From the NCBI GenBank assembly GCA_016715115.1, contig JADKBM010000013.1:423475-487474 (forward strand): 64,000 nt of DNA, in the 5' to 3' direction. Shown here piece after piece: positions 14,522 to 63,477 of this stretch. Made by a program: the position numbers and the translations under genes. The notes under the pieces are model-generated. The model saw nothing but the letters and a program-made list of their open reading frames with translations. It did not search any database and had not been told where the DNA came from. The DNA is from Acidobacteriota bacterium (GTDB lineage: Bacteria > Acidobacteriota > Blastocatellia > Pyrinomonadales > Pyrinomonadaceae). Positions within the stretch are counted from its first letter, which is position 1. Every line of letters begins with the position of its first letter.

Positions 14522-14622
14522 AGTGAAATCCTCGAAAGTTCTTTACGAAAGGTGGTTTTCAGAGTATAAACGAAAAGCAGTCCGGGCGGAAAATGGAACT
14601 TTGGAATTTGAACTTTGATCTT

Positions 14623-14753: not shown

Positions 14754-14769
14754 GAGCCAACCCCTTTTT

Positions 14770-24665: not shown

Positions 24666-24670
24666 TGATT

Positions 24671-37602: not shown

Positions 37603-37720
37603 ATTGGGATTTGGGAATTCGGATTTGTGATTTGCGGCAAGTCAGAACCGCCTGCGTGAGCGGGCGGGCAACCACTGCACTTTTGGCCCTGGAATTCGGA
37701 ATGCCCGGAATCCCGGATCC
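37603..37720. repeat. Heptamer arms (GGGATTT / GGAATTC types) around the 21-nt GC-rich core
   Basis: attgggatttgggaattcggatttgtgatttgcgg begins right after the TGA at 37600-37602. The core ccgcctgcgtgagcgggcggg is at 37648-37668. The distal arm is ggaattcggaatgcccggaatcccggatcc. Confidence 0.8.
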
Positions 37721-45869: not shown

Positions 45870-45908
45870 ATAAAAAACACCACGTGGGACGAAAGCCCTA
45901 CGTGGTGT
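45870..45908 (-). terminator. Rho-independent terminator on the minus strand, about 190 nt downstream of the REC gene
   Basis: The minus strand reads acaccacgtagggctttcgtcccacgtggtgt followed by tttttta. The plus-strand side lacks a T-run. Confidence 0.55.
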
Positions 45909-46613: not shown

Positions 46614-48038
46614 ATGTACGAATTTGCCGTTACACCGGCCGTTACACAAGTCAGACGCGCCGGCGTGATCATTACGGATGTCGCTCCGGACTCTCTCGGC
46701 GTCGAGCTCGGACTTGAAAGCGGTGACCGCATCGTCAAGGTGAACGGGCGTTCGATCCGCGATTATCTCGATTTTCGATTCCAGACGTCTGGTGAGACCG
46801 AACTCGAATTCACCGTCAAGAAATCAAACGGCGAGACCTGGGAGATCGAACTCGATCGGGAAGAAGGTGAAGATTTCGGGCTCGGATTCGAACAGATCGT
46901 GCCGCGCCAATGCGCCAACGAATGTCTTTTCTGCTTCTGCAAGGGAAATCCCGAAGACGCGCGTCCGTCGCTTTTCGTGCGCGACGAAGATATCCGGCTC
47001 TCGTTTTTGTACGGGAATTACACGACGCTCTCGTCGATCACGCCCGACGAGATGAAGCGGATCGTCGAACAACGCCTGTCGCCGCAGTACGTTTCGGTCC
47101 ACGCGACGGATCTCAAGACGCGTGCCTATCTGCTTGGTGTCGATGAAAAACGGGCGGACATTTCCGACAAACTTCAGTTTCTTTTGGACAACGATATCGA
47201 GATCCACGCGCAGGTCGTACTCTGTCCGACGATCAATGACGGCGCACAGCTTGAGAAGACGCTGCGCGATCTGGCGGCGAGCTATCCGAAGGTTATCTCG
47301 ACGGCCGTCGTTCCGGTCGCGCTGACGCGCTACAACAAAGACGACCGACTGACGCGCGTGACGCCAGAATTCTGTCGCGCGACGATCAAGCAAGTCGAGA
47401 AGCTGCAGAAGGAATTTCGCAAAGAGCTGGGCGCAACGTTCGCTTTTCTCGGTGACGAGATCTACATTAAGGCGGGCGCACCGATCCCTTCGCGGCGGCA
47501 TTACGGAAACTATCCGCAGATCGAAGACGGCGTCGGGATGATCCGTTCGTTTCTGAACAGGTTCGAGAAGCTTGTCGGAACCTTGAATGGCGGCGGCGCA
47601 TTGACGAAACGCTCCAATCGAATCGACGCCCGGACCCATCTCGCCGCGTTCGTGCCGGAAAATCTAAAATCCAAAATCCAAAATCCAAAATCGAAAACCG
47701 GATCGATCCTGACCGGCGAAATGTTCGCGCCGATCCTCAGAACCGAAATCGAAAAGATCAATGCTTTGACGGGCGCGAGATTGAGCGTCCTTGCGGTTCC
47801 CAACACGTATTTCGGCGGTGATGTTTCGGTCTCGGGCCTGCTCACCGGACAGGATTATCTGGCCGTCAGGGGACAGGTCACGGGCGATTTTGTGATTATC
47901 CCGAAACATACGATCAAATCGGACGAACCGATTTTGCTCGACGGAATGACGTTCGACCAACTGAAGGAATCGTTCGAAGTTCCGATCTATGCCTTCGATC
48001 TTGAGGAACTCGCCGCCTTTGCGTTGAAGCTAAAGTAG
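46614..48038 (+). CDS. PDZ + radical-SAM-like + DUF512 protein (TIGR03279-type putative FeS enzyme)
   Basis: 474 aa. N-terminal PDZ (GLESGDRIVKVNG), a Cx3Cx2C motif (CANECLFC) and a DUF512-like C-terminus. It contains a 42-nt in-frame heptamer array (ENLKSKIQNPKSKT). Confidence 0.75.
   Translation: MYEFAVTPAVTQVRRAGVIITDVAPDSLGVELGLESGDRIVKVNGRSIRDYLDFRFQTSGETELEFTVKKSNGETWEIELDREEGEDFGLGFEQIVPRQCANECLFCFCKGNPEDARPSLFVRDEDIRLSFLYGNYTTLSSITPDEMKRIVEQRLSPQYVSVHATDLKTRAYLLGVDEKRADISDKLQFLLDNDIEIHAQVVLCPTINDGAQLEKTLRDLAASYPKVISTAVVPVALTRYNKDDRLTRVTPEFCRATIKQVEKLQKEFRKELGATFAFLGDEIYIKAGAPIPSRRHYGNYPQIEDGVGMIRSFLNRFEKLVGTLNGGGALTKRSNRIDARTHLAAFVPENLKSKIQNPKSKTGSILTGEMFAPILRTEIEKINALTGARLSVLAVPNTYFGGDVSVSGLLTGQDYLAVRGQVTGDFVIIPKHTIKSDEPILLDGMTFDQLKESFEVPIYAFDLEELAAFALKLK
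47659..47700. repeat. In-frame intragenic heptamer array (6 units, 42 nt) in the DUF512 gene
   Basis: aaaatct aaaatcc aaaatcc aaaatcc aaaatcg aaaaccg, translated as NLKSKIQNPKSKT. Confidence 0.85.
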
Positions 48039-48442: not shown

Positions 48443-49444
48443 TCAGGTTCCCGTCGAACCGTCGACGCTGTGCTTCGAATCGTCGGAAATATCGATCTCG
48501 GTCCAGTTTAGGCGCTTGACGAACTTTCGTTTGCGGACGTCGCAATCGGTTTTCGTGCAGATCTCGCAGGACGATTCAACGCAGGGGTCGGTGTGAACAA
48601 ACATCTCGATGCTCTCGCCGAATTTGGTGTCAATCAGCCGTTCGAGATCGTCGACGTCTTCGTGCGCATCTCGTGTGGTCAGATACCACGGCACCGTCAG
48701 ATGGCAGTCGATGTGCAGCGTGTTGCCGTATTTGATGATGCGGAGATTATGGAGGTCGATCCAATTGTCGCGGCGCGATTCTTCGAGGGTCGCGACGACC
48801 CTTTTCAGAAGTTCTTCGTCGGCCTCGTCCATAATCCCCGCGATCGAACCGCGGAGAATCTTGTAACCGGTGTAGATGATCACGCCGCCGAAGATCAGCG
48901 CGACCACGCTGTCAAGCCAGGCGAGTTTCGTAAACAGGATCAGGATGAGTCCGATGATGATGCCGATCGTTGAGTATGTGTCGGACTGCAAATGCTTTCC
49001 GCTCGCGACGAGGGCCAGTGAATTGTTCTTTTTGCCTTTTCTGACGGCAATGGCACCGACACCGTAATTGACGAAGGCCGTAATCGTGACGAGGATGATT
49101 CCGTAATCGAGCGAACCGATCTCGTGCGGGTGCCAGAGGTTATTGATGGCTTCATAAATGATCACGAGACCGGCGACGGCGATCAGTGTTCCCTCGATCG
49201 CCGCCGAGACGAATTCGACCTTGCCGTGACCGTAGGGGTGATTCGCGTCGCGCGGCTGGGCCGAAAGATAAAGACTGTAAAGCCCGACGAAGCCGGCGGT
49301 GACGTTGATCGTGCTCTCAAGCGCGTCGGTCAGGATCGCTACCGAATTCGTCAGATACCACGCGATGAATTTGATAACGAACAGCGCAACCCCGACCGCG
49401 GCGACGATCTTTTGAAAATTGTAGTTTTCTCGTGAGACTTCCAA
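48443..49444 (-). CDS. Cation diffusion facilitator (CDF) family metal efflux transporter with Cys-rich C-terminal tail
   Basis: The core matches CDF: IKFIAWYLTNSVAILTDALESTINV...HPYGHGKVEF...LQSDTYST. The start is uncertain (TTG at 49444 proposed). The ORF-track start at 49741 runs through the heptamer array. Confidence 0.7.
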   Translation of the reverse strand: MEVSRENYNFQKIVAAVGVALFVIKFIAWYLTNSVAILTDALESTINVTAGFVGLYSLYLSAQPRDANHPYGHGKVEFVSAAIEGTLIAVAGLVIIYEAINNLWHPHEIGSLDYGIILVTITAFVNYGVGAIAVRKGKKNNSLALVASGKHLQSDTYSTIGIIIGLILILFTKLAWLDSVVALIFGGVIIYTGYKILRGSIAGIMDEADEELLKRVVATLEESRRDNWIDLHNLRIIKYGNTLHIDCHLTVPWYLTTRDAHEDVDDLERLIDTKFGESIEMFVHTDPCVESSCEICTKTDCDVRKRKFVKRLNWTEIDISDDSKHSVDGSTGT

Positions 49445-49475: not shown

Positions 49476-49686
49476 TTGTTAATTTCGGATTCAAGATTCA
49501 AGAAAGATTTCAGATTCCGGATTCCAGGTATCCGGATTCCAGCGTTTAGGATTCCAGATTCCAGGATTCCAGGATTCCAGGATTCCAGGATTCCAGATTC
49601 CAGATTCAAGATTTCAGATTCCAAGAATTCAAGATTCCAAGAATTCAAGAATGATTCAAGATTCCAGGATTCCAGGATTCCAAGAG
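49476..49686. repeat. Heptamer array (GGATTCC / AGATTCC / AGATTCA family)
   Basis: Runs such as ggattccaggattccaggattccaggattccagattccagattcaagatttcagattcc. It lies upstream of the CDF gene start. Confidence 0.9.
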
Positions 49687-49965
49687 CCTGTCGGAAAAAT
49701 CGATTCAGTGTGCGGAGCAAACGCACATACGATAGCACCACGCGAAGCGGAGCGGAACGTGGTGTCAGCCGCGATCACCTCCAGCGAGCGTGTGAAACAC
49801 GCGGAACTGTTGCAAAAACGAGAGTTACGCGTGTTACACACGCTTAGGACGTCGGTTAGACAAGCCACCACGTTCCGCTCCGCTTCACGTGGTGTTATCG
49901 CAAGTTCGCGTGCTTCGCACGCTTGAAGAAGTAATGCCCGTTCCCAAACGGCTTTCTCCGACAGG
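49687..49965. repeat. About 279-nt nested palindromic element (possible structured RNA or MITE-like element)
   Basis: The outer arms are cctgtcgga (49687-49695) and tccgacagg (49957-49965). The 34-nt arms are gatagcaccacgcgaagcggagcggaacgtggtg (49731-49764) and caccacgttccgctccgcttcacgtggtgttatc (49866-49899), with 2 mismatches. At least four GCGTG-type mini-hairpins are present: tgtgcggagcaaacgcaca, gcgtgtgaaacacgc, gcgtgttacacacgc and gcgtgcttcgcacgc. Confidence 0.8.
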
Positions 49966-50085
49966 TTCCCAAGATCCAGATTCAAGATCCAAGATTCCAA
50001 GGATTCCAAATCCAGATTCCAAATTCCAGATTCCAGATCCGAATTCAAGATTCCAGAATTTCAAGGGTTCCAGATTGGGATCCCG
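49966..50085. repeat. Degenerate heptamer array (AGATTCC / AGATCCA family)
   Basis: ttcccaagatccagattcaagatccaagattccaaggattccaaatccagattccaaattccagattccagatccgaattcaagattccag. Confidence 0.85.
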
Positions 50086-50104
50086 AATCGCGTTGCAATC
50101 GCGT

Positions 50105-50213
50105 CGAGTCGGTACCATCTGCGGTAGCGGATGGTTGGTTGCGGCACTCGCGGACCGCAGTATTGATACCAACCTATCTTCAACCATCCGCTACCGCAGA
50201 TGGTACCGACTCG
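50105..50213. repeat. Perfect 33-bp inverted repeat with 43-nt spacer
   Basis: cgagtcggtaccatctgcggtagcggatggttg (50105-50137) and caaccatccgctaccgcagatggtaccgactcg (50181-50213). The spacer holds a small hairpin, tgcgg...ccgca. Confidence 0.9.
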
Positions 50214-50249
50214 TCCCGACCCCGCATACAAAGAACCCGTGGGTTTTTC

Positions 50250-50392
50250 AAAGCTCCAGATTCAAGATTCCAGATTGAAGGATCTCGAGTCCGGGCGTTT
50301 TAGATTTCTTGAATCGTGGAATCTGGAATCTTGGAATCGAAAATCCCAAATCCCAAATCCCAAATCCCAAATCCCAAATCCCAAATCCCAAA
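50250..50392. repeat. Heptamer arrays ending in (CCCAAAT)x7, abutting the xdhC stop
   Basis: ccagattcaagattccagattgaag...ggaatctggaatcttggaatcg, then 7 CCC tracts at 50345-50389. The final aaatca supplies the TGA of xdhC (50393-50395). Confidence 0.9.
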
Positions 50393-51421
50393 TCAGCGGT
50401 TCTTGACCGCGATGATCTCGGCCGCGATCGATATGGCGATCTCTTCAGGCGTTCGGCTGTTGATCGGAAGCCCGATCGGCGTCCGGATCCGTTTTAGCCG
50501 TTCGCCTTCGAAACCCTCCTTTTTCAATGAGTTCAGCAGAACCTTCATCTTGGCCTTGCTTCCCAAAACCCCGAAGTATTTGAAGTTCTTGTCAACAAGG
50601 CGACGGATGACGATCTCGTCGAAGCGGTATCCGAGCGTCATTGCGACGACGTAATGGTCCTCGCCGGAGTCGATCATCTGGTCGATCGACTCGTATGAGT
50701 CAATGATCGTTTTGCGATCCGCGAAGACGTTCTTCTCGACCGTGTTGAGTTCGTTTCGGTCATCGAACAACTCGATGTGAAAATCGAGTTTCGCCATCAA
50801 CTCCGAAAGTGCAAGCGCGCAATGCCCGCCGCCGACGATGAAAAGTCTCGGCTTTCGACCGATCGTTTCTTCATAAACGAACTTCGAAGCTCCGCCCTTA
50901 GAAGTTCCGCCGTATGGAGTTCCGCCTTCAGGCGGCCCTTCCTCCGCCACCCAGAACCCGATTTCCGACGAACCGAAGTCATCGGAGATCGCCAGCCCGC
51001 GTTCAGTGATCTTGAACCGGATCACCCGCGATTCGCCGAGCGCGTCGCAAATCGCACGTACCGTCGGCAGATCACCCGCGTCGAGCGCGCAGACGATCAC
51101 CGTCTGGCTTCCCGAGCAGATCATCCCGCTCGCGTCCGGAACATTCGGCCGGTGAACAAGCGTTTGGATTTTGGATTTTGGATTTTGGACTTCGGATTCG
51201 TCGGTGCGATCGTTGCGCGCTTGATCGACGAGCGCAACCTCCATCACACCGCCGCCGATCGAGCCAATCATTTCGTCATCGGCGACAACCATTTTGAATC
51301 CCGCGCGGCCGGGCGAACTGCCTGAACTCTCGGCGACGACGATCAAGATCGCGCGTTCGCCCGAATCCAGACGTTCGCGGGCAAAGTTCCAGAGTTCCGA
51401 TTCAAACCTCATTCGATGCAT
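50393..51421 (-). CDS. xdhC: XdhC/CoxI family molybdenum-cofactor insertion accessory protein
   Basis: ATG at 51421 (or 51412). The N-domain reads AILIVVAESSGSSPGRAGFKMVV and the C-terminal Rossmann reads RLFIVGGGHCALALSELM. It carries in-frame repeat insertions (QNPKSKIQ; PPEGGTPYGGTSKGGASK). Confidence 0.8.
   Translation of the reverse strand: MHRMRFESELWNFARERLDSGERAILIVVAESSGSSPGRAGFKMVVADDEMIGSIGGGVMEVALVDQARNDRTDESEVQNPKSKIQTLVHRPNVPDASGMICSGSQTVIVCALDAGDLPTVRAICDALGESRVIRFKITERGLAISDDFGSSEIGFWVAEEGPPEGGTPYGGTSKGGASKFVYEETIGRKPRLFIVGGGHCALALSELMAKLDFHIELFDDRNELNTVEKNVFADRKTIIDSYESIDQMIDSGEDHYVVAMTLGYRFDEIVIRRLVDKNFKYFGVLGSKAKMKVLLNSLKKEGFEGERLKRIRTPIGLPINSRTPEEIAISIAAEIIAVKNR
50882..50937. 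repeat. Intragenic (xdhC) 15-nt x3 tandem repeat overlapping the 22-nt hairpin element
   Basis: The sense strand reads GGCGGAACTCCATAC GGCGGAACTTCTAAG GGCGGAGCTTCGAAG (GGTPY GGTSK GGASK). GGAGTTCCGCCTTCAGGCGGCC at 50916-50937 is identical to 52359-52380. Confidence 0.8.
51167..51208. repeat. In-frame intragenic heptamer array in xdhC
   Basis: ggatttt ggatttt ggatttt ggacttc ggattcg (tcggtgc), translated on the minus strand as ESEVQNPKSKIQ. Confidence 0.8.
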
Positions 51422-51531
51422 TTTACTTCGTTTTCTGTCTGATCGCGACGGGTACTCGGACGTTGCCCGAACTGCGGGCCAACGCCGGAGCGCGGGTTGA
51501 AGAAGGCCAGATTGTGCGTTAAGGAAGTGTC

Positions 51532-51708
51532 TTTCCCGCGAAATACGCCAAAGGCGCGAAAAATGGCATTCTTTCACCTTGTTCTTCGGAAAATTCGCGG
51601 GAAGTTCCTTCAACCCAGATTACTCATTAAACTCAATTTCCCGCGAAATACCCAAAAACAACATCAAAAATGGCATTTTTGCGGTTTTGGCGTGTTTCGC
51701 CGGAAAGA
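51532..51708. repeat. Two tandem copies of a TTTCCCGCGAAATAC hairpin element between xdhB and xdhC
   Basis: Copy 1 is tttcccgcgaaatacgccaaaggcgcgaaaaatggcattc...ggaaaattcgcgggaag. Copy 2 is tttcccgcgaaatacccaaaaacaacatcaaaaatggcattt...gcgtgtttcgccggaaag. Confidence 0.7.
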
Positions 51709-51763
51709 GATTTTCTATTACGTAATTTGGGTTCAAATGCGTAAATTCGGATTTGGCCGACCG

Positions 51764-53980
51764 TTACGATCCGTACAGATTCATCAGGATCTTTTCCGGA
51801 GTCAACGGCGCGTCGAATGGCGGCAAACTCTCTTGATTGAATGCTTTGACGGCTTCGCGGAGGGCGAAATAGGCGCCGATGCCGTACATCAGGGGCGGTT
51901 CGCCGACGGCCTTTGAATTGAAAACCGCGAGATTTTCCTTGAGATTATCCAGCGAGACCACCTCGATCGTTTTCGGAGCCGAGTAAACATCGGGAATCTT
52001 GTAGGTTGAGAGCGCGTTCGAACGCAAACGGCCGATTTCATCGTAAACGACCTCTTCCATCGTCATCCAGCCGATTCCCTGAACGATGCCGCCCTCGATC
52101 TGACCGAGGTCGACCGCCGGGTTCATCGATTGACCGAAGTCGTGGCAAACCTTGACGTAATCGAATTCGTAGGTTCCGCGAAGGCAATCGACCGTAACGC
52201 CGACGATCGCCGTTCCATAAACGTGATATGCGAACGGATGGCCTTTGGCAACCGACCAGTCGAAACCGATTCCCGGCGTCGCGTAATGTGCGTGCTCGCT
52301 GAGATTGACGCGTCGCAAATGCGCCTCGTTCACAAGTTCGACCCAGCTCGGAGCGCTTGGAGTTCCGCCTTCAGGCGGCCTTCCAACCATCGATGCCTCA
52401 ACTTCCTTTAGCCTTTCAAGAATCGTCCCGCAGGCGATCGCCGTCGCCTTGCCGTTCAGATCGGCCGCCGCCGAAGCCGCCGTCGGCGACGTGTTGGCGA
52501 TCCGCAAAGTATTGGTCGTGTGGACCTTGATAAATCCGATCGGGATGCCGAAGACGTTCGCCGCGACCTGTGCGATCTTGGTGTTCACGCCCTGTCCCAT
52601 TTCGACCGCGCCGGTCGAAACCGCGACCGTTCCGTCGGTGTAAACGTGGACCAGCGAACGCGCCTGGTTCATCGGCGTTTTAGTGAACGAGATCCCGAAA
52701 CAGACGGGCTGGATGGCGACGCCTTTTTTCAGATACTTGCTCGATGCATTGAATTCAAACGCATCGCGTTTGAGACGTTCGAATTCGTATTTCGCGTCGG
52801 CCTGCATCCAGCTTGTTTCGGCCTCGGATTCAGCGATCTGGCCGTACGGGAATTCGTCGCCGGTCTTTAGGAGATTGCGGCGTTGGACCTCGTCTTTCGC
52901 GACGCCGAGCTTCTCGGCAGCGTGCGCGATCGCCGATTCGATGACGAACATTCCCTGCGGTCCGCCGAATCCCCGAAAAGCCGTGTTCGGCGGCAGGTTC
53001 GTCTTGCAAGAATAGGCGACGGCCGAAACGTTCGGGATAAAATACGAGTTCGAGCAGTGGAAAAGCGTGCGTTCGAGAACCGGAAGCGAGAGGTCGCACG
53101 CCGCGCCTGCGTTTTGGAAGAAGGTCACGTCATACGCGACGATCTTCAGATCGGCATCGAGCCCGATTCTGTAATCGGCCGAGTACGGATGCCGTTTTCC
53201 GGTCATCCGCATATCATCCATCCTGTGCAGCGCGAATTTCACCGGACGCCTTGTGATCTGTGTGCCGACGGCGCAAATGGCCGCCCAAGCGTTTGCCTGA
53301 TCTTCCTTGCCCCCGAAGCCGCCGCCGAGTCTCGTCACGTCGACCTCGATCAGATTCATCGGCAGCGCCGTAACCCTCGCAACCGCGCGCTGGACCGCCG
53401 TCGGACCCTGTGTCGACGAATAAACGCGGATTCCGTCGCTCTCGGCCGGAATCGTAAAGGCGCCCTGAGTTTCGATGTACAGATGCTCCTGGCCGCCCGA
53501 ATGGGTGCGGCCTTCGAAAACGTGCGCGCAGCTCTTGAGTGCCGATTCGGCGTCGCCGAGTTTGAATCGTTTCGGCGGCGCGATCAGGCTGTTTCTTGCA
53601 AATGCCTCGCGTTCATCGGTGATCGCTTCGAGCGGTTCGATCTCGACCGAGATCAGTTTCGCCGCGGCACGCGCCTGCTCGTCCGTTTCGGCGAGCACGA
53701 TGGCGATCGGCATTCCGCAGAAATGAACTTCGTCTTCCGCAAGCAGGGGTTCGTCCGGCAAGATGCCGCCGATCTGATTCTCGCCGACAAGATCCTTTGC
53801 GGTGATAACCCGTGCGACGCCTTTTGCAGTTTCCGCTTTGCTCGTGTTGAGGGCCGTGATTCGACCGTGGGCAACCGGCGAGTCGAAAACGCACGCGAAA
53901 AGCGTCCCTTCGACGACCGGAATATCGTCGAGATAAACCGATTCGCCGCGTACATATGATTTTGAGTCAAGGTTTTTCAT
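51764..53980 (-). CDS. xdhB: Xanthine dehydrogenase / aldehyde oxidase molybdopterin-binding subunit
   Basis: 738 aa. GESVYLDDIP..., GGGFGGKE and conserved Mo-hydroxylase blocks. It carries an in-frame 22-nt element (RPPEGGTPS). Confidence 0.9.
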   Translation of the reverse strand: MKNLDSKSYVRGESVYLDDIPVVEGTLFACVFDSPVAHGRITALNTSKAETAKGVARVITAKDLVGENQIGGILPDEPLLAEDEVHFCGMPIAIVLAETDEQARAAAKLISVEIEPLEAITDEREAFARNSLIAPPKRFKLGDAESALKSCAHVFEGRTHSGGQEHLYIETQGAFTIPAESDGIRVYSSTQGPTAVQRAVARVTALPMNLIEVDVTRLGGGFGGKEDQANAWAAICAVGTQITRRPVKFALHRMDDMRMTGKRHPYSADYRIGLDADLKIVAYDVTFFQNAGAACDLSLPVLERTLFHCSNSYFIPNVSAVAYSCKTNLPPNTAFRGFGGPQGMFVIESAIAHAAEKLGVAKDEVQRRNLLKTGDEFPYGQIAESEAETSWMQADAKYEFERLKRDAFEFNASSKYLKKGVAIQPVCFGISFTKTPMNQARSLVHVYTDGTVAVSTGAVEMGQGVNTKIAQVAANVFGIPIGFIKVHTTNTLRIANTSPTAASAAADLNGKATAIACGTILERLKEVEASMVGRPPEGGTPSAPSWVELVNEAHLRRVNLSEHAHYATPGIGFDWSVAKGHPFAYHVYGTAIVGVTVDCLRGTYEFDYVKVCHDFGQSMNPAVDLGQIEGGIVQGIGWMTMEEVVYDEIGRLRSNALSTYKIPDVYSAPKTIEVVSLDNLKENLAVFNSKAVGEPPLMYGIGAYFALREAVKAFNQESLPPFDAPLTPEKILMNLYGS
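52359..52380. repeat. 22-nt hairpin element inside xdhB, identical to the copy in xdhC
   Basis: GGAGTTCCGCCTTCAGGCGGCC (stem CCGCC/GGCGG, loop TTCA) is translated in frame as PPEGGTP. Confidence 0.85.
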
Positions 53981-53992
53981 TACGAATTAGAT

Positions 53993-54470
53993 GGTAGACG
54001 GTAGACGGTAGACGGTAGAGGGTAGACGGTAGACGGTAGAGGGTAGACGGTAGACGGTAGACGGTAGAGGGTAGACGGTAGACGGTAGAGGGTAGACGGT
54101 AGAGGGTAGACGGTAGACGGTAGACGGTAGACGGTAGACCGCCAACCTCTCACTGCTCACCTCTCACCTCTCACCTCTCACTGCTCACCTCTCACTGCTC
54201 ACCTCTCACTGCTCACCTCTCACTGCTCACCTCTCACTGCTCACCTCTCACCGCTCACCTCTCATTGCTCACCTCTCACTCACTGCTCACCTCTCACCTC
54301 TCACCTCTCACCGACCACTGACCACCGACCACTGACCACCGACCACTGCTCACTGCTCACCGCTCACCGCTCACCGCTCACTGCTCACCGCTCACTGCTC
54401 ACCGCTCACCGCTCACTGCTCACCGCTCACCGCTCACCGCTCACCGCTCACCGCTCACCGCTCACTGCCA
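53993..54470. repeat. Composite heptamer arrays filling the xdhA-xdhB spacer
   Basis: 21 units of GGTAGAC/GGTAGAG (53993-54139). Then CTCTCAC/TGCTCAC units (about 54147-54310), CGACCACTGACCAC units (about 54311-54347) and GCTCACC/GCTCACT units (to about 54470) that include the xdhA stop and last codons. Confidence 0.95.
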
Positions 54471-55899
54471 CGAAGTGCGCCCGGAAAAGCTGGCGCGCCA
54501 ACAGACGTTTGTATTCGGCCGAACCGCGAACGTCGGAGATCGGCGCGATCTCCGTTTGCAGGATCGCCTCCGCTTCTTCGAGGATCGCATCGTTGATCGG
54601 TTTTCCGCTCAGGAACGCCGAGGTCTTTCTTAACAACAAAGGCGTCGGCGCGACCCCGCCGATCGAGACGCGCGCCGTTTCGACAACATCGCCCGAAAGC
54701 CTGAGCGCGATCGCCGTATTAACAGAAGCGATGTCAAGATAGGTTCGTTTCGAGACCTTTTCAAAATTGAAATGCGTGAAATCCTTGCGAATTGAGATCT
54801 TCGAAATGATCTCCGACTCAACCTTTGCGAGCTGCTTGTAACCCAAATACAAATCAGATAACGCAATGTTCCGAATTCCGAAATCCGAATTCCCAATTCC
54901 GAAATCGCGTAGTTCCAATTCGGCGTCGAGCGCCAGAAAAAAGACCGTCATATCGCCGATCGGCGAGGCATTTACAAAATTGCCGGCGAGCGTCGCCATA
55001 TTCCTGATCGGCGTCGACGAAACCAATTTCAAATACTTGTCAAGGTTCGGAAAAAGCCGATGGAAGACTTCAGACTCGAGCAAGTCGGTGACGACGACAG
55101 ACGGGCCGATCTCGACCGTTTCGTCGGTCTCGCGGATGAACCGAAGCGCAGGATCGTCAAACAAACTCGTCGCACCCGCGTGGACCATTTCGTCGTGCTT
55201 CTGAACGTAAAGGTCCGTGCCGCCGGCGACGAATCTTGGGGTGGTGATTTCGGATGATACGGATTTCAGACCTTCGGAGTCGGGATGTTCGCGCACCAAC
55301 AATTCGAGACGCCGCCCGATGGATTCGAAATATTTCGGAACCGCACCGGCGGCGATCGCCTTCTCGATTTGCGACTGTGACTTGTTGAGCATCGCATTGC
55401 CGAAATCCGAAATCCCAAATCCCAAATCCGAAATCCTCTCGCACGCCCGCTCGATCGACTTGTAACCCGTGCAGCGGCAAATGTTTCCGTCGATCGCCGC
55501 AACCACCGATTCTTTGGTTTTCTGACCGTCGCCGAGGCAAAAACCGGTCAGAGACATCACGAATCCAACCGTGCAGAATCCGCATTGAGTTCCGGATTCG
55601 TCGACCAACGCTGCCTGCGCGGGTGTCAGGCTTCCGTCGGCCGGGTTGATTCCTTCGACAGTCACGATATGCTTGCCGCGCGCATTCAAGAGCGGCATCA
55701 GGCACGATGTCATCGAACGATATCTGAGGTCTCCGTCCTTGAGTTCACCGACGAGGATCGTGCACGCCCCGCAATCCCCTTCGCGGCAGCCGATCTTCGT
55801 TCCCTTCAGATTCTTGTGATACCGAACAAAGTCGAGCACCGTCGTTCCGCCTGGGAGATCGGTTTCGACGGATTGATTGTTGAGAATAAATTCGATCAT
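54448..55899 (-). CDS. xdhA: Xanthine dehydrogenase small subunit (2x [2Fe-2S] + FAD-binding domains)
   Basis: The ATG at 55899 gives MIEFILNNQSV. Contains CREGDCGACT, CGFCTVGFVMS and CRCTGYKSI, then FAD_binding_5-like VAGGTDLYV. There are two in-frame heptamer insertions, and the last codons are repeat-encoded. Confidence 0.85.
   Translation of the reverse strand: MIEFILNNQSVETDLPGGTTVLDFVRYHKNLKGTKIGCREGDCGACTILVGELKDGDLRYRSMTSCLMPLLNARGKHIVTVEGINPADGSLTPAQAALVDESGTQCGFCTVGFVMSLTGFCLGDGQKTKESVVAAIDGNICRCTGYKSIERACERISDLGFGISDFGNAMLNKSQSQIEKAIAAGAVPKYFESIGRRLELLVREHPDSEGLKSVSSEITTPRFVAGGTDLYVQKHDEMVHAGATSLFDDPALRFIRETDETVEIGPSVVVTDLLESEVFHRLFPNLDKYLKLVSSTPIRNMATLAGNFVNASPIGDMTVFFLALDAELELRDFGIGNSDFGIRNIALSDLYLGYKQLAKVESEIISKISIRKDFTHFNFEKVSKRTYLDIASVNTAIALRLSGDVVETARVSIGGVAPTPLLLRKTSAFLSGKPINDAILEEAEAILQTEIAPISDVRGSAEYKRLLARQLFRAHFVAVSGER
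54871..54909. repeat. In-frame intragenic heptamer-type array in xdhA (FAD domain)
   Basis: ccgaattccgaaatccgaattcccaattccgaaatcgcg, translated on the minus strand as RDFGIGNSDFGIR. Confidence 0.75.
55401..55436. repeat. In-frame intragenic heptamer array in xdhA (linker after the 2Fe-2S domains)
   Basis: cgaaatc cgaaatc ccaaatc ccaaatc cgaaatc c, translated on the minus strand as SDLGFGISDFG. Confidence 0.8.
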
Positions 55900-55907
55900 T
55901 ATTCCAG

Positions 55908-56030
55908 CCACGAATCGCACCAATTTCACGAACGCAACCCTTTATGCGACGTTGTTGATCCAACCGCCAAAAGCGCGGCGCATCAGGTGCGTTCCTGAAA
56001 AAACAGTCGTGAAATTCGTGCGATTCGTGG
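55908..56030. repeat. 23-bp inverted repeat (1 mismatch) with 77-nt spacer, immediately upstream of xdhA
   Basis: ccacgaatcgcaccaatttcacg (55908-55930) and cgtgaaattcgtgcgattcgtgg (56008-56030). The stem extends via gaacgca/tgcgttc. Confidence 0.85.
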
Positions 56031-56040
56031 CAAAGCGCAA

Positions 56041-56547
56041 CTAGAATCGCCGAATCAAAACGACGCCGATCGTGATCATCGCCGCGCCGACGACACGCAA
56101 AACGCTCACCGGCCGTTCCGGAACTCCGAGCCAGCCGAAATGATCGATGACGAGCGTGACCAGCATTTGCCCGGCGATGATCAGCGAGAACGTCAGAGCG
56201 ACCCCGATCTTCGGAACCAGAACTACGGCCGAGGCGACGAAAAACGCTCCCAGGATTCCCCCGAGCCACGCGACCGCCGGCGCATTCTTCGCGTTCGCCA
56301 GATTCGAAAGCGGTATGCCGGTCGCCAGAATATACAGGAAGAGCGCCAATGTCCCGACCGCGAATGAAATGAACGCGGACAGGATCGGACTCTCGACGTG
56401 GCTGGCGAGTTTGTTGTTGATCGCCGCCTGCGTCGGCATCATCATTCCGGCGAGAATCGCGAGGATGATGAAGGAATAATTCTGAATAAAGCTGACCACT
56501 ATGATTTCGGAATTGTGAATTTGGATTTCGGCGATTCGAAATCCCAA
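56041..56547 (-). CDS. DMT superfamily transporter, DUF606/YdcZ-like
   Basis: ILAILAGMMMPTQAAINNKLA...WLGGILGAFFV...IIAGQMLVTLVIDHFGW is DUF606-like. The real start is probably downstream (for example GTG at 56499), because the first 15 codons are repeat sequence. Confidence 0.7.
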   Translation of the reverse strand: MGFRIAEIQIHNSEIIVVSFIQNYSFIILAILAGMMMPTQAAINNKLASHVESPILSAFISFAVGTLALFLYILATGIPLSNLANAKNAPAVAWLGGILGAFFVASAVVLVPKIGVALTFSLIIAGQMLVTLVIDHFGWLGVPERPVSVLRVVGAAMITIGVVLIRRF

Positions 56548-56622
56548 TTCTGGAATTCAGTTCTGCGATTCAGGACTCCGGCAGTTCGAAAATCCAAAAT
56601 CAGAAATCACATACCGAATTCC
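56502..56622. repeat. Heptamer palindrome (GATTTCG / CGAAATC family)
   Basis: The left arm is tgatttcggaattgtgaatttggatttcggcgattcgaa. The right arm is cgaaaatccaaaatcagaaatcacataccgaattcc, ending at the deaminase stop (56623). Confidence 0.8.
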
Positions 56623-57102
56623 CTAATACTCGATTTTGTCCGCCTTCTCGACCCAGTTCTTGAAGACCCGCAATCCTTCATCGCGCAAAAACGTCGCTGT
56701 CGGGATGCGGCGGGATTCGAGCGGCAGCGCGAGTTCCTCGTAGATCAGATCGTCGTCGAATCCGGCTTCCTTGGCGTCGCTGCGGGAACACGCGAAAAAG
56801 ACCTGTTTCGGACGCGCCCAGTAGATCGCGCCTAGGCACATCGGGCACGGTTCGCAACTCGCGTAGACAATGCAATCGTCCAGCTGAAACGTCTTCAGTT
56901 CGCGGCAGGCATTGCGAATCGCCACGACCTCGGCGTGGGCCGTCGGGTCGTTCGTCGACGTCACTTGATTGCAGCCTTCGCCAACGATCCGGCCGTCTTT
57001 GACGACCACCGCACCGAACGGACCTCCGTCGTTCGCGTCAATGCCGTTCTGTGCGAGTGCGATCGCGCGGCGCATAAATTGTTCGTGGACGTCGGTCATC
57101 AT
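56623..57102 (-). CDS. CMP/dCMP-type zinc deaminase, guanine deaminase (GuaD)-like
   Basis: HAEVVAIRNA...CEPCPMCLGAIYWAR plus a C-terminal FDDDLIYEEL tail typical of Bacillus-type guanine deaminases. A tRNA-adenosine deaminase cannot be excluded. Confidence 0.7.
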   Translation of the reverse strand: MMTDVHEQFMRRAIALAQNGIDANDGGPFGAVVVKDGRIVGEGCNQVTSTNDPTAHAEVVAIRNACRELKTFQLDDCIVYASCEPCPMCLGAIYWARPKQVFFACSRSDAKEAGFDDDLIYEELALPLESRRIPTATFLRDEGLRVFKNWVEKADKIEY

Positions 57103-57122
57103 CAAATGTGAATCAAAAGTCA

Positions 57123-57956
57123 TCAACCTTTTGGCTTGACCTTGATCTCAAACAGCTTCTTCCAGAGCTTGCCGGTGACAAAGATCCGGTCGGCCGCCGC
57201 ATCGTAGGCGATGCCGTTGAGCGTTCGTTCCGACTCTCCGGCGGCATCCTCGGGCGAGATCCCGTTCAGATCGATCCAGCCGAGAAGATTCCCGGTATTC
57301 GGGTCGATGCGCGCGATGTGGTTCGGCTTGCCGACGTCCTCCGAGTGCCAGACGTTCGCCCAGATCTCGCCTTTGACGTATTCGAGTTCGTTGAGTTTGT
57401 AGATCGGCCGGCCGTTCTCGTCCTTGACGACGACCGTCCTGATCGTCTCGAACGTCTCGGGATTCAAGATGCGAAGGACGTGCGTGCCGTCGCTCATTAT
57501 GAGATTCGTGCCATCGTGCGTCAATCCCCAGCCTTCGCCTGAGTATCGCATTTCCTTCTGGAGCTTGAAGTTCATGTCATACACGAAAACGGTTTTTTCG
57601 CGCCACGTCAGCTGATAGATACGATCGTTGAAGATCGTCAGGCCTTCGGCGAAGTACTCGCGCGGAACATCATATTTTTGAAGGACTTTGCCCGTTTCGA
57701 TCTCGACCTTCCGGAGCGAAGAATTATCGTATTCGCCGTCGCTCTCAAAAAAAACGCCGTTTTGGATGACGAGCCCCTGCGTGAATGATGTCGAGTCGTG
57801 CGGATAAGCCTTCACCGTCTCATAAGTATAGACCGGCACCGACGCTTTGGCGGTTTTCGTGCCGGTGTTCGACGCATTGACGTTAGGCTTGTTGACCGCC
57901 TTTTCGCCGCAGGCGTTAAGCAAGAAAAGAGTCGCGAGTAAAAATATAAGACGCAT
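57123..57956 (-). CDS. Glutaminyl-peptide cyclotransferase (beta-propeller, plant/bacterial type), lipoprotein
   Basis: The ATG at 57956 gives MRLIFLLATLFLLNAC. Contains YPHDSTSFTQGL...SLRKVEIETGKV...FAEGLT...YQLTW...GEGWGLTHDG...SDGT. Confidence 0.8.
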   Translation of the reverse strand: MRLIFLLATLFLLNACGEKAVNKPNVNASNTGTKTAKASVPVYTYETVKAYPHDSTSFTQGLVIQNGVFFESDGEYDNSSLRKVEIETGKVLQKYDVPREYFAEGLTIFNDRIYQLTWREKTVFVYDMNFKLQKEMRYSGEGWGLTHDGTNLIMSDGTHVLRILNPETFETIRTVVVKDENGRPIYKLNELEYVKGEIWANVWHSEDVGKPNHIARIDPNTGNLLGWIDLNGISPEDAAGESERTLNGIAYDAAADRIFVTGKLWKKLFEIKVKPKG

Positions 57957-58117
57957 AAGTCCGATTTGATGGTCCGGTTCGTCGATCCGTTCCCTGATGA
58001 ATTCTTTCGGCTTGACCCGACGATCTTCGCAAGCGCGAGTTTGCCGGAGTTGCCGCGCTTCGAGCAAATGGCCGAGACAGTTCGCTTCAGTGATTCGGTC
58101 TGCAGATCGAAACGGCA

Positions 58118-59449
58118 TCATTTTTTCAGCGCCCGATCGATCGCGTCGCGAAATCCGTCGACGTTCAGGAATCGCACGCGAACGCCGTTGACATAGATCG
58201 AAGGCGTTCCGGAGATTCCAAGTTCCTTGCCGTCGGCAACGTCTTTCTTGACATCCGCGGCGACCTTTTCGCTTTGAAAGTCTAGCTCAAATTTCTGGGG
58301 ATTCAAACCGGCGGCGACGGCGTACTTCTTGAGCGACGCGACATCGAGCGCGGTTTGATTGCGGTAAAGCAGTTCGGTGTATTCAAAGAATTTGCCTTGC
58401 GCGGCGGCGGCATTGGCGGCGAGCGCCGCATTGTATGCGTCCTTATGGATCGCCGTCAGCGGAAAATTGCGGACGACGAACCGAACCTGACCGCCATATT
58501 CCGACAAAACCTTTTGCAGCACCGGATGCTTCGCGGCACAGACCGAACATTGAAAGTCCGAGAACATCACGACCGTCACGGGCGCGGTCGCCGCACCTTT
58601 CGAAGGCTTTCCGTCGGTTGCGATCTGGAAAACAATCGGCGCGGGTTCCGAGTACAGAAACTGCGGCTTGTATTTCGCCGCCAATCGGCGCCGCAGCGCG
58701 GATTCGAGTTCTTCGCGCTCTTCATCGGAATAATCGCGAAGCTTGTCGGTGATCTCCTGCGCGATCAACTTGTGCGGTTCGATCGCAAGACTCTTGGCTT
58801 CGGCAGAAACGAGCGCCGAGAAGATCAATTTGTTCAGCTCGAATTTCACACGGTCGAAGACCTTCGCTTTCAATTCAAAGAGCGTCACTTTGTTCTTCGC
58901 TTCGAACATCGCGACCGTGATCGGCTTGCCGTTGACGGTTGCCAGAACGTCGGCCGGAGCAAGATTCGCGGCGTTGACGCTTTTGCCGGTGACCGTTTTG
59001 TACTTTGTCTTCAGTGCCGCGACAAAGGCGTTGAAGGCCTTCTGCTCGGGTTCGCTCCGCAAAAAGGTCACGATCTGATCGCGGACCTCGGCTATCGGCC
59101 GGTTGTCGAGCGCGAGACGGTTCGCGTTGTAAATGTCCTGGATCTCTTTGTCAGTCGGATCGGGAACCTTTGCCTTCACTTCGCGTTCGTAAAGCTGTTC
59201 GAAGGCGATCTTGCGCGCCGCCGATTCAAGTTCGGCGAGCGTGTCGATGATCTGGACCTCGAGTAGTTCCTTGCGGCGTTCGGCCATTGAAGCGGCGAGA
59301 TTCTCGTACTCCGTACGGACGGGCAGCGGAAGATCCTCAACGGAAATGCGTTGTCCGTTGGCGATTGCCAAGACCTGTCCGGACGTCTGTCCGAACGTTG
59401 CGGCGGCGAAGAAGGCCAAAATGATTGCGATAACTATTGATCTGAACAT
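58118..59449 (-). CDS. Secreted thioredoxin-fold DsbA-like oxidoreductase with N-terminal SurA-N/chaperone-like domain
   Basis: The ATG at 59449 gives MFRSIVIAIILAFFAAATFGQ. The C-terminal DsbA-like module reads VTVVMFSDFQCSVCAAKHP...GTPSIYVNG. Confidence 0.75.
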   Translation of the reverse strand: MFRSIVIAIILAFFAAATFGQTSGQVLAIANGQRISVEDLPLPVRTEYENLAASMAERRKELLEVQIIDTLAELESAARKIAFEQLYEREVKAKVPDPTDKEIQDIYNANRLALDNRPIAEVRDQIVTFLRSEPEQKAFNAFVAALKTKYKTVTGKSVNAANLAPADVLATVNGKPITVAMFEAKNKVTLFELKAKVFDRVKFELNKLIFSALVSAEAKSLAIEPHKLIAQEITDKLRDYSDEEREELESALRRRLAAKYKPQFLYSEPAPIVFQIATDGKPSKGAATAPVTVVMFSDFQCSVCAAKHPVLQKVLSEYGGQVRFVVRNFPLTAIHKDAYNAALAANAAAAQGKFFEYTELLYRNQTALDVASLKKYAVAAGLNPQKFELDFQSEKVAADVKKDVADGKELGISGTPSIYVNGVRVRFLNVDGFRDAIDRALKK

Positions 59450-59593
59450 GACGCGGGTTTGATTCGGCTTTTTCGAATAAAGATGTCGCTCGACAGAAGT
59501 TCTTAATTTATCGTAACGGCCGGGCGCGTGCAACGCGTCGGAGAATCGCCGTCGGTTGAGTTATGATTATTGTGAACCGTGGAGGGAGAAAGT

Positions 59594-59935
59594 ATGTCGG
59601 ATGTTAGATTCTCGGGTACCGTCGATCACCTGGCTCTGAAATGCGCCGACCTTGAGGAGGCGGTTGCGGAGTACAAACGGCTTGGGTTTTCGCTCGAGAC
59701 GATCTATGAAGATTGGGCGATGATGCGCGACGCTCGCGGTTTTGGCATCGCGCTGCTGCCGCCCGAGTCGAAGCATCCGCCGCACATCGGATTGCGCGTC
59801 GAATCGATGGAGGAACTTGAAAAAGCCGCCCGCGCCGAGGGCCGGCCGATCAAGCCGCACCGCGACGGAACCTCGTCGTTTTACACCAAAGGCGTCGACG
59901 GACAGATCATCGAATTGATCTGCTACCCGGAATGA
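59594..59935 (+). CDS. VOC (glyoxalase/bleomycin-resistance/dioxygenase) family protein
   Basis: ATG at 59594 preceded by GGAGGGAG. VDHLALKCADLEEAVAEYKRLGF...HIGLRV. Confidence 0.7.
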   Translation: MSDVRFSGTVDHLALKCADLEEAVAEYKRLGFSLETIYEDWAMMRDARGFGIALLPPESKHPPHIGLRVESMEELEKAARAEGRPIKPHRDGTSSFYTKGVDGQIIELICYPE

Positions 59936-60129
59936 TTTTGGATTTGCGATTTGCGATTTTGGATTCCAGATATTCCAGATATTCCAGATTCCAACATCGA
60001 AAATTCCAAATTCCAAATTCCAAATTCCAAATTCCAAATTCCAAAATCCAAAATCCAAAATCGCAAATCGCAAATCGCAAATCGCAAATCGCAAATCGCA
60101 AATCGCAAATCGCAAATTCCAAAATCGAA
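59936..60129. repeat. Composite heptamer array between the VOC gene stop and the glycosylase start
   Basis: gattttg gatttgc gatttgc gattttg, then gattcca/gatattcca units, then aaattcc x6, aaaatcc x2-3, aaatcgc x8, and finally aaaatcgaa-ATG. The 5' arm is the reverse complement of the 3' AAATCGC block. Confidence 0.95.
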
Positions 60130-60717
60130 ATGCTTGCCCGTCAATTCTATCTTCGTACCGACACGCTCGCGATCGCCAGGGATCTGATCGGTAAACTGCT
60201 CATCGTTCAGGATCCCGAACACGGACGCGTGTCCGGGATGATCGTCGAAACCGAGGCGTATCTCGGTGAGATCGACAGGGCGGCGCATTCCTACGGCGGG
60301 CGGCGAACGGCGCGAAACGAGATCACCTACGCGGCCGGCGGTCATACTTACGTCTTTTTCGTTTACGGAATGTACTTTCAGCTCAACATCGTCTGCGGTC
60401 CCGAAGACTCGCCGCATGTTTGTCTGATCCGCGCCGTCGAACCCGTCGAAAACATCGAACTGATGCGCGAACGGCGAAAGACCGTGCAGGATCTGAATTT
60501 GACTTCGGGACCCGGAAAATTATGCGTCGCCCTCGGTATCAACAAAAGCTTTAACGGCGCGGATCTGCTCGGAAATCGAATTTGGCTGGAAGATTTTCGT
60601 ACAGTCGGCGGGGAAGAGGTCGGAAGCGGGAAACGCGTCGGCATCGATTACGCCGGGGAATTCGCCGCCAAACCCTGGCGCTTCTGGTTGAAAGGGAACA
60701 AGTTCGTGTCGCGTTGA
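60130..60717 (+). CDS. DNA-3-methyladenine glycosylase (Mpg/AAG family)
   Basis: The ATG at 60130 gives MLARQFYLRTDTLAIARDLIGKLL...IVETEAYLG..DRAAHSYGGRRT.RNE.....GGH.YVYF.YGM. The ORF-track start at 59932 is pure repeat sequence. Confidence 0.85.
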   Translation: MLARQFYLRTDTLAIARDLIGKLLIVQDPEHGRVSGMIVETEAYLGEIDRAAHSYGGRRTARNEITYAAGGHTYVFFVYGMYFQLNIVCGPEDSPHVCLIRAVEPVENIELMRERRKTVQDLNLTSGPGKLCVALGINKSFNGADLLGNRIWLEDFRTVGGEEVGSGKRVGIDYAGEFAAKPWRFWLKGNKFVSR

Positions 60718-60744
60718 TCCGGAACGCGGGGAAGTCGTTTGGCG

Positions 60745-61110
60745 TCAGCATTCGAGGTACTGCCGCAGCATCGGCTTTAGGATTCGATAGTCGAGCGGCT
60801 TGTCGAGCAACTCATCGCAGCCGGCCTCGCTTGCTTCGCGTTTGAAATCGCTGCCGAAAGCGGTCACCGCGATGATCGGAACCCGGCTACCGAAGGTGAC
60901 CTCGCGGATCGCGCGCGTCGCAGTCAGTCCGTCGACCACCGGGAGCGAAATGTCCATCAGGATCAGATCCGGATGAAACCGGCGCACCTTGTCGACCGCC
61001 TCGATCCCGTCGGCGGCTTCGATGACGAAATATCCGCAGCTTTCAAGCAGAAAACGCAAAACATCGCGGCTGTCTTCGTAGTCCTCGACGATCAAGATCA
61101 GTTTTTCCAT
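60745..61110 (-). CDS. Stand-alone response regulator receiver (REC) protein
   Basis: The ATG at 61110 gives MEKLILIVEDYEDSRDVL...PDLILMDISLPVVDG...PIIAVTA...K. Confidence 0.8.
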   Translation of the reverse strand: MEKLILIVEDYEDSRDVLRFLLESCGYFVIEAADGIEAVDKVRRFHPDLILMDISLPVVDGLTATRAIREVTFGSRVPIIAVTAFGSDFKREASEAGCDELLDKPLDYRILKPMLRQYLEC

Positions 61111-61222
61111 ATCTGCACGCTTTCGATACACGGCGGAGCCCCGGAACTTTCACTGCAAAAATAGTGCCGCGTCGAGCGAAGCAGTTTGAACGATCAATTC
61201 GAATTCCTGTATCATCCGAATT

Positions 61223-62179: not shown

Positions 62180-62273
62180 GAATTGAAATGCGTGGCACGA
62201 ATCGGGAAATCGGAGTATCATTAGCGAATCACAGTTTCGACCGTTGAGAACGGCGTTAAAAAAAGAATCTATT

Positions 62274-62534: not shown

Positions 62535-62598
62535 CGTTTTGAGTTACGCCGTCTGGCGGCGATGCTTCAGATTTGGCCCCCAACCGCGAAGTCGGATA

Positions 62599-63390: not shown

Positions 63391-63477
63391 ATTTCTATTA
63401 AACTTCAAAGTTTGTCACCGAAGCAAAAGCGCCCGCTTTTTTGCATCGAGCGGTTTATGTTATGTTCTAAATCAAAT

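Follow-up and report, generated by a model that had tools for sequence, protein, structure and literature searches.

The systems closest to the DNA considered here are the repetitive extragenic palindromic (REP) sequences of E. coli and Pseudomonas, together with REPINs and bacterial interspersed mosaic elements (BIMEs), which are mobilised by REP-associated tyrosine transposases (RAYTs). These are extragenic, multicopy, imperfect hairpin units; an inverted doublet around a spacer forms one hairpin, singlets, doublets and clusters coexist, spacers are structured, and insertion sequences (ISs) of the IS110 family use them as natural targets. Bacterial miniature inverted-repeat transposable elements (MITEs), such as Correia/NEMIS in Neisseria, ERIC, and Nezha in cyanobacteria, are noncoding, 100-300 nt long, carry terminal inverted repeats (TIRs) and long hairpins, are dispersed between genes, and are co-transcribed with their neighbours. 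REP/REPIN/MITE-like repeats are well studied in Proteobacteria and hardly in Acidobacteria, and short-read assemblies break at them. Several Acidobacteria do encode RAYT-like ‘TIRYT’ transposases flanked by partly self-complementary inverted repeats, and at least one repeat of this type, in Koribacter versatilis, forms a repeat family (PMC3733652). Here, we describe a 279-nt palindromic element at positions 49687-49965 of a 64,000-nt stretch of an Acidobacteriota metagenome-assembled genome (MAG) of the Pyrinomonadaceae (GCA_016715115.1, contig JADKBM010000013.1, positions 423,475 to 487,474; hereafter, the window). It is likely to be one fixed copy of a dispersed, multicopy, noncoding and selfish palindromic repeat family in an uncultured activated-sludge Acidobacterium. 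We place this family with REP/REPIN/BIME- or MITE-like non-autonomous repeats, as a new family of a well-known kind and not a new RNA gene.

An earlier note, made from the letters of the DNA, had described three layers of symmetry, and all of them are borne out. The 9-nt outer arms, CCTGTCGGA (49687-49695) and TCCGACAGG (49957-49965), lie at the ends where the note had put them and pair with each other; the first belongs to a longer left terminus, CCTGTCGGAAAAA (49687-49699, plus strand), whose initial 9 nt pair with 49957-49965. The two 34-nt arms (49731-49764 and 49866-49899) have the 2 mismatches reported for them, and complementarity reaches further, to 58 nt at 84%. A repeat search finds these 58-nt arms at 49707-49764 and 49866-49923, separated by 101 nt. 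The left, or L-type, unit (plus strand) consists of one hairpin, TGTGCG..CGCACA (49709-49727), the linker TACGATAG, and hairpin H, CACCACG..CGTGGTG (49736-49764). The right, or R-type, unit (plus strand) is the left unit in inverted copy, with hairpin H' (49866-49894), the linker TTATCGCAAGTTC, and a hairpin GCGTGC..GCACGC (49908-49922), so that each 34-nt arm contains the CACCACG..CGTGGTG hairpin, as the note had said. Between the units lies a 101-nt centre (49765-49865), in which two spacers enclose the mini-hairpins M1 (GCGTGTGAAACACGC, 49788-49802) and M2 (GCGTGTTACACACGC, 49829-49843), with a 26-nt variable loop between the two hairpins; its inner inverted pair (49787-49808 and 49823-49844, 91% complementary in the repeat search) is nested inside the 58-nt arms. 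The four mini-hairpins that the note had listed could all be located, at 49709-49727, 49788-49802, 49829-49843 and 49908-49922. The element ends in a right tail (49924-49965, plus strand), which holds a small hairpin (49936-49952) and then the right terminus TTTCTCCGACAGG.

The element as a whole, to which no strand is assigned, folds as a 104-bp rod. As RNA, the plus strand has a minimum free energy of -167 kcal/mol (z = -14.1) and the minus strand one of -163 kcal/mol (z = -12.4), and in either case none of 200 shuffles did as well; with DNA parameters the value is -93.9 kcal/mol (z = -13.1). Folding of the element far exceeds chance, and it is equally good on both strands, as it has to be for a DNA palindrome.

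The earlier note had found no credible open reading frame (ORF) in the element. ORFs of 91-130 aa do span it, and in this the note was incomplete; we nevertheless judge the crossing ORFs to be spurious, because their sole database relative in a protein search, a 96-aa hypothetical protein on another contig of the MAG GCA_016709645.1, is an ORF over another copy of the same repeat. That contig, JADJMK010000025.1 (L015), holds three further copies, located between PmbA/TldD and membrane-protein genes. Copy c1 occupies 10145-10290 plus 12073-12170, copy c2 starts at 12218, and copy c3 lies in reverse orientation at 14146-14378 and is 92% identical to positions 2-169 of the window element. A protein search with the concatenated six-frame translation of these three copies gave no matches. 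In all, one MAG carries four copies on two contigs, every one of them intergenic; the 64-kb window itself holds a single copy. The note had also raised the prospect of a single-copy element without homologues, and the further copies dispose of it.

To look beyond these MAGs, we aligned Logan contigs of four DNA runs from activated sludge and wastewater (X1-X4) to the element. Contigs aligning at 85-99% identity numbered 106, 53, 15 and 31 in X1-X4, respectively. In X1, contigs of the exact locus have a depth of ~8, and the summed depth reaches a maximum of ~1,790 at 49894-49903. The modules are unequally represented: in X1, the right unit is the most abundant, with a summed depth of 700-1,790, compared with ~290-390 for the left unit, ~300 for mini-hairpin M2 and 50-110 for the spacers. 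Over the right tail, depth falls to 0-3, making the tail almost unique at 85% identity or more. Aligned alone, the centre finds ~27 distinct contigs or variants in X1, in which the stems are invariant and the loop at 49809-49820 is variable; the left end aligned alone finds 16-21 variants in X1 and X2.

Copy alignment and the depth profile together resolve the family into modules. The repeating unit of ~58 nt comprises the hairpins GYGTGC..GCACRC and CACCACG..CGTGGTG and stands inverted on either side of the 101-nt centre, in which two spacers and two 15-nt hairpins (GCGTGTGWAACACGC and GCGTGTTWCACACGC) surround the 26-nt loop. The termini of the family, CCTGTCGGAAAAA ... TTTTTCCGACAGG, are conserved. 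The left terminus CCTGTCGGAAAAA is also present in c1, c2 and c3, and similarity starts sharply at 49688-49691 in at least eight metagenome contigs with differing flanks. Most of those left flanks are GATTCMA-type arrays, in either orientation, and both c1 and c2 are preceded by GGATTCCA arrays, as is the window copy. This sharp start amid varied, mostly array flanks gives the family a defined end and a marked association with GATTCCA-type arrays. Right ends of other copies, seen as consensus sequences of loose ends, read ..AAACGGCTTTTTCCGA, with ..TTTTTCCGA as the right terminus. Modules also occur in other combinations. In one metagenome contig, 49746 runs straight into 49887, giving a single-unit form that lacks the centre; c2 and c3 form a cluster with one unit in common; c1 and c2 lack the right tail and terminus; and in c1 the whole 101-nt centre (L015 10223-10290 plus 12073-12103) is reverse-complemented relative to the window copy and c3. 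Recombination between the inverted 58-nt units, or independent nesting of palindromes, would account for this flip. Elsewhere in the window, a separate hairpin, CACCACGTGGG-ACGAAAG-CCCTACGTGGTG (45878-45907), has the stem of hairpin H followed by a short T-run and sits just 3' of an alanine dehydrogenase-like gene; this could represent a lone, diverged unit or simply a terminator.

The window copy can be compared across strains. Contig JADJMK010000035.1 of GCA_016709645.1 is 98.8-99.0% identical to the window, with one window protein identical, and represents a sister strain; a third strain, GCA_016712785.1, matches positions 51067-64000 only. In the sister strain, the element occupies the orthologous position and differs at 2 of 279 sites (C49743 versus T, and T49932 versus C). 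C49743 accounts for one of the two mismatches in the arms; T, found at this position in the sister strain and in the family consensus, restores the pair, and C49743 is, on comparison of these copies, private to the window strain. The flanking arrays differ by several units between the two strains. Judged by its agreement with the sister strain, the window copy is fixed. Public runs containing words of the spacer around the element are almost all activated-sludge, sludge or wastewater metagenomes.

Collectively, these observations fit the part of the earlier note that had proposed a nest of REP-like hairpins or a MITE-like element with terminal inverted repeats: the element is multicopy, dispersed, and built from hairpin modules, with conserved termini and a sharp boundary against varied flanks. 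Several points weigh against our reading of it as one member of a mobile repeat family. The per-genome copy number, which we estimate at tens to hundreds, is drawn from metagenome depth alone, in which related strains or species may be pooled. The exact 21-mer of the arm is absent from 185,579 reference genomes, a collection that does not include this species, and a 19-mer searched against Joint Genome Institute (JGI) metagenome contigs gave 14 matches, all of them chance matches with no wider similarity. Neither a presence/absence polymorphism nor a clean target-site duplication was seen, and mobility is deduced from dispersion. A candidate duplication of 8-9 bp, TTCCAAGA / TTCCCAAGA, is found close to the ends of the window copy, inside the tandem array and not directly adjoining the termini; as the element sits in a tandem array, a target-site duplication could not be demonstrated. 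The GTAG/CGTC tag that defines most REP families is absent from the units here (hairpin H is preceded by GATAG on the left or by GATAA, in reverse complement, on the right), and CGTC occurs once only, in the right spacer at 49851-49854. At 279 nt with a 101-nt spacer, the element is also at or beyond the upper limit of described REPINs. Finally, no transposase other than an interrupting IS110-type IS was found in the window or beside the copies (~95 kb of the species' genome), so the mobiliser is purely inferred; in the same ~95 kb there was no Y1_Tnp match.

We propose that the family multiplies, or has multiplied, as a non-autonomous element that would depend on a transposase gene at another place in the genome, acting in trans. 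Our leading candidate, put forward tentatively and at somewhat less than an even chance, is a hairpin-recognising HUH tyrosine transposase of the RAYT/TIRYT type that would act on single-stranded DNA. This preference rests on the arrangement of units as inverted doublets, on the occurrence of singlets and clusters beside doublets, on the uneven abundance of modules, and on the presence of acidobacterial TIRYT genes with repeats. Our second choice, which we hold to be doubtful, is a DDE transposase that would act on the terminal inverted repeats.

Compared with the REP/REPIN/BIME systems, the element shares the features set out at the start but has longer units (~58 nt with two hairpins), a 101-nt spacer with its own hairpin pair, extra terminal inverted repeats, and a location within heptamer/octamer arrays; it lacks the GTAG/CGTC tag, and no RAYT gene turned up for it in the ~95 kb. 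The TIRYT-associated repeats (Di Nocera et al. 2013, PMC3733652) come from the same phylum and likewise are ‘double palindromic’ inverted repeats that occur as dimers and clusters and have no GTAG; unlike them, no copy here has a TIRYT gene in view nearby, and the suggested link is one of analogy only. The likeness to bacterial MITEs lies in size, noncoding nature, TIRs, long hairpins and intergenic dispersal, whereas a demonstrable target-site duplication and a known parent IS are lacking here and the unequal mosaic of modules is more BIME-like. The family stands out for the size of the element, for its nested, modular construction and for being found consistently with heptamer arrays; this last feature alone is not described for known families.

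The alternative that survives best is that the family is a classical MITE, that is, a deletion derivative of a DDE-type IS whose TIRs, CCTGTCGGAAAAA and TTTTTCCGACAGG, would be bound by the parent transposase, whose action would leave a target-site duplication, and for which GATTCCA arrays would be preferred sites. Size, noncoding nature and multicopy status all fit, as do the conserved termini, the sharp boundary against varied flanks, the ..TTTTTCCGA right ends of other copies, and the candidate 8-9-bp duplication. However, this duplication sits in a tandem array, where chance matches arise, and does not directly adjoin the termini. The unequal module abundance, the single units, the flipped centres and the missing right terminus of c1 and c2 are unexpected for a uniform cut-and-paste element. 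Nor did reading of the sequence reveal a parent IS with these termini; the only IS, of the IS110 type, has other ends. We therefore regard a classical MITE as possible but on balance unlikely.

A second alternative is that the element arose by local inverted duplication and serves the host as a regulatory hairpin, either as a terminator or 3' stabiliser of xdh-xdhC or as an insulator before the neighbouring CDF transporter gene. REP elements in E. coli have secondary roles of this kind (PMC3733652), and the position of our element, immediately 3' of xdhC and ahead of the promoter-like site of the CDF gene, would suit such a role. Yet the dozens to hundreds of related copies elsewhere rule out a local origin, the rod is not followed by a T-run, a terminator scan finds nothing in the element, and a relative of the locus in another Pyrinomonadaceae MAG (L034) has no such element after xdhC. 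A host hairpin of local origin is thus quite improbable. Under the repeat-family reading, the element probably has no dedicated function at this locus; read-through RNA from xdhC would nonetheless form a very stable hairpin (-159 to -163 kcal/mol) that could act as a 3' barrier or terminator, and a secondary role of this kind is compatible with membership in the family.

The earlier note had also considered a structured noncoding RNA. In this alternative, the rod would be the functional product of an RNA gene or of a multicopy small RNA family, as might be argued from its extremely stable fold on both strands, the invariance of the mini-hairpin stems among variants, and one metatranscriptome contig that touches a family member. 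The stability on both strands is, however, expected for a DNA palindrome. In the window, Rfam returned 0 matches at the gathering score, and a permissive search yielded only generic hairpin matches to miRNA-precursor models, well short of the threshold (MIR831, 32.9 bits versus 100). The metatranscriptome contig (run X25) has a depth of 2 and covers an IS junction of another copy, and no other RNA run holds the locus or its 10-kb surroundings, so the locus itself is covered by no RNA run. Across four copies, 91% of cells are paired and one pair is changed on both sides, which shuffles match in 295-332 of 500 trials; this covariation result rests on four copies, three of them independent, and these are too few to decide. 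Pairing is preserved because the two halves are inverted copies of one unit, and the rod is in this sense kept through sequence identity. Furthermore, no promoter-like site adjoins the element, and its modules recombine freely. Together, these results leave an RNA gene very unlikely. Integron attC, retron msr/msd, CRISPR, and ribozyme or viroid-like RNA were each discarded as candidates: there is no Rfam match, the window has no integrase, reverse transcriptase or cas gene, and the element occurs in it only once.

That the element arose in assembly, for example from a chimeric foldback read in a long-read MAG, has next to no chance of being correct: the source MAGs are rich in frameshifts, as in the IS transposase, but the element has the same position in two independently assembled strains, and contigs from further public runs reproduce its interior over 150, 128 and 84 nt without a difference and over 159 nt with a single one.

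The copies on L015 also connect the family to an IS. The centre of both c1 and c2 is split by an IS, which sits in the loop of one 15-nt hairpin; the two IS copies lie in tandem at L015 10291-12072 and 12363-14144, each within a palindromic element. In both copies of the repeat, the sequence reads ..TCCGCGTG up to the left end of the IS, ATGTTATAAAGACGG.., and resumes as TTTCACACGCTCGC after the right end, ..CCGTCTTTATAGATG; the left flank before ATGTTATAAAGACGG can also be given as ..GGTCCGCGTG. The IS encodes DEDD_Tnp_IS110 and Transposase_20 domains in a frame broken by frameshifts, which are MAG sequencing errors or decay. Its left end is 86 nt long. The right end of intact relatives measures 336 nt; that of the L015 copies reaches 648 nt through an extra segment of ~370 nt, which relatives with 76-85% identical transposases (L017-L026, L037-L039) lack. 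The subterminal inverted repeats are 15-16 nt long. Given the short left end, the long right end and these subterminal repeats, the IS is assigned by its sequence to the IS1111 group of the IS110 family.

The same IS occupies the same repeat position in the independent copies c1 and c2, and two junctions from other sources agree. The X25 metatranscriptome contig, from a copy whose loop differs, shares this left flank in a junction read on the other strand, ATAACAT joined to CACGCG, and the closest intact relative of the IS, L037 (85% identity), has the left flank TTTCCGCGTG joined to ATGTTAT. More distant relatives (76-84%) in other metagenomes are inserted at TTYCGCGTG^TTTCGCGGG (the caret marks the insertion point), a related site outside the repeat family. 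The IS group thereby shows two types of target, TCCGCGTG^TTTCACACGC and TTCGCGTG^TTTCGCGGG. In the window, the corresponding site is empty: on the minus strand, positions 49783-49806 read TTCCGCGTG^TTTCACACGCTCGCT, the caret falling within the M1 loop. Of this stretch (TTCCGCGTGTTTCACACGCTCGCT), 23 nt (49784-49806) are identical to the reconstructed c1 site, and the window copy is therefore an intact, unoccupied target.

REP sequences and REP-type palindromes are known to be favoured as targets by IS110-family elements (PMC1525189, PMC11208160), and IS1111 elements have their bridge RNA in the right end (PMC11208160). Described targets of the group include REP for ISPa11, ISPpu9 and ISPpu10, the Tn21 inverted repeats for IS4321 and IS5075, and attC for ISPa21-like elements. 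As in those systems, a repeated palindrome is entered at one precise position by an IS whose left end is short, whose right end is long and whose inverted repeats are subterminal; the difference is that the target here is the loop of a 15-nt hairpin in a larger composite repeat of an Acidobacterium. By analogy with what is described for IS1111, a bridge RNA specified by the long right end may guide the IS to the M-hairpin site. When the IS ends were searched by k-mers for guide sequences, no convincing target match emerged, and Rfam searches of the IS loci gave no match to a bridge-RNA model. With an IS, occupied sites and many empty ones together in one genome, the family would form a natural target set that could help to show how IS1111-group bridge recombinases choose hairpin-embedded targets.

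At its locus, the element lies in a gene-free spacer between two genes on the minus strand, a CDF (cation-efflux) transporter gene with Cation_efflux/ZT_dimer domains (48443-49444) and an xdhC-like gene with an XdhC_CoxI domain (50393-51412). From the TTG start of the former at 49444 to the stop codon of the latter at 50393, which bounds the spacer, we count 948 bp, close to the 950 bp of the earlier note. A promoter-like site (49482-49454) stands upstream of the CDF gene, between it and the first array. The note had placed the element between heptamer arrays; arrays are indeed present on both sides, though their units are of 7-8 nt, GATTCCA / GATTCCAG, and not uniformly heptamers. The left array (49488-49685, plus strand) is composed of GATTCCA, GATTCCAG and GATTCAA units, and the right array (49970-50074, plus strand) has the same unit in the same orientation. 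As the two are alike in unit and orientation, the element interrupts a single array. Further on come a second, unrelated palindromic element (50085-50240; 39-nt arms, 95% complementary) and then an inverted array of the TGGAATC type followed by an AAATCCC array (50307-50394, plus strand).

The second palindrome is itself repeated. It folds as RNA at -95 kcal/mol (z = -9.9) and is multicopy in sludge metagenomes, with 32 contigs in X1 and an arm depth of ~350-420; its other copies have a common left flank of the array type, TTCCAGGATTCCAAGGGTTCCAGACTGGGA. A three-part cassette, [GATTCCA-type]n-[TGGAATY]n-[AAATCCC]n, occurs twice in the window near gene ends, and its direct and inverted arrays are able to pair into a long hairpin. 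At 27989-28451, the cassette is intact and has no palindromes, whereas at 49488-50394 it is interrupted by the two palindromic elements. The existence of the palindrome-free cassette suggests that both palindromes were inserted into a pre-existing array. One could extend this to a site-specific nesting on three levels, peculiar to the genome architecture of this lineage, in which tandem heptamer/octamer arrays, retained between genes at orthologous places across Pyrinomonadaceae-related species, would serve as dedicated landing pads, at least two unrelated hairpin families would insert there, and the hairpin loops would in turn be targeted by a bridge-RNA-guided IS1111. We consider this extension speculative and improbable. 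If it were true, and the arrays were a specific target or product of hairpin elements, it would amount to an undescribed ‘safe-harbour’ propagation of selfish DNA in bacteria. The corresponding locus of L034 has neither CDF gene nor array nor palindrome after xdhC and is uninformative as an empty site.

The same DNA has left its mark on annotation. In the sister MAG GCA_016709645.1, the NCBI annotation places two hypothetical proteins of 97 and 78 aa in the spacer (L016 12863-13156 and 13303-13539), corresponding to ORFs at 49476-49847 and 49889-50278 of the window. To judge from their translations, these are translated arrays and palindromes, and hence spurious. On another contig, P0001 (IPJ30_14755) is a third ORF derived in this way from array and palindrome, and such ORFs are likely to be annotation artefacts throughout these MAGs. 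The family accounts for spurious ‘hypothetical proteins’ in MAG annotation, and it offers a strain-typing marker for an abundant wastewater lineage.

Arrays of this general kind are widespread in the window. Heptamer arrays built from many different kinds of unit lie in many spacers (10617-10694, 24539-24666, 37601-37634, 47659-47697, 54869-54921, 55400-55436 and 59934-60131), and several are pairs of direct and inverted arrays, for example GCAGAGT / ACTCTGC at 24539-24666. In the literature, we found no description of such array-filled spacers for Acidobacteria; the nearest reports concern TAACTGA repeats in Beggiatoaceae (PMC4679880) and a heptamer repeat that forms quadruplexes and is enriched in Xanthomonas and Nostoc (PMC4692102).

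Long heptamer arrays also stand between genes of the xdh operon (53988-54465), ending ~12 nt before a start codon. In L034, the Pyrinomonadaceae MAG that is the nearest relative in the 185,579-species reference collection (XdhC 66% identical), xdh-associated arrays at 1541-1877 and 3305-3520 have the same or related units. The units seen in L034 and the window are TAGACGG/GTCTACC and GTGAGCG- and TGGTCAG-like sequences, with related units at the orthologous junction of the FAD-Mo subunit genes. Related units at orthologous junctions in so distant a relative suggest long-term maintenance of the xdh-associated arrays. Repeats extend into the coding sequence of xdhC as well, where TTTGGAT x5 (QNPKSKIQ) at 51163-51198 and 15-nt repeats (GGTPYGGTSKGGASK) at 50882-50926 are in frame; an AATCCAA run occurs at a similar place in the xdhC of L034 (6215-6246). 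One more palindrome lies at 14620-14756, between divergent beta-lactamase-like and amino-acid permease genes, with 32-nt arms that are 97% complementary and 73 nt apart.

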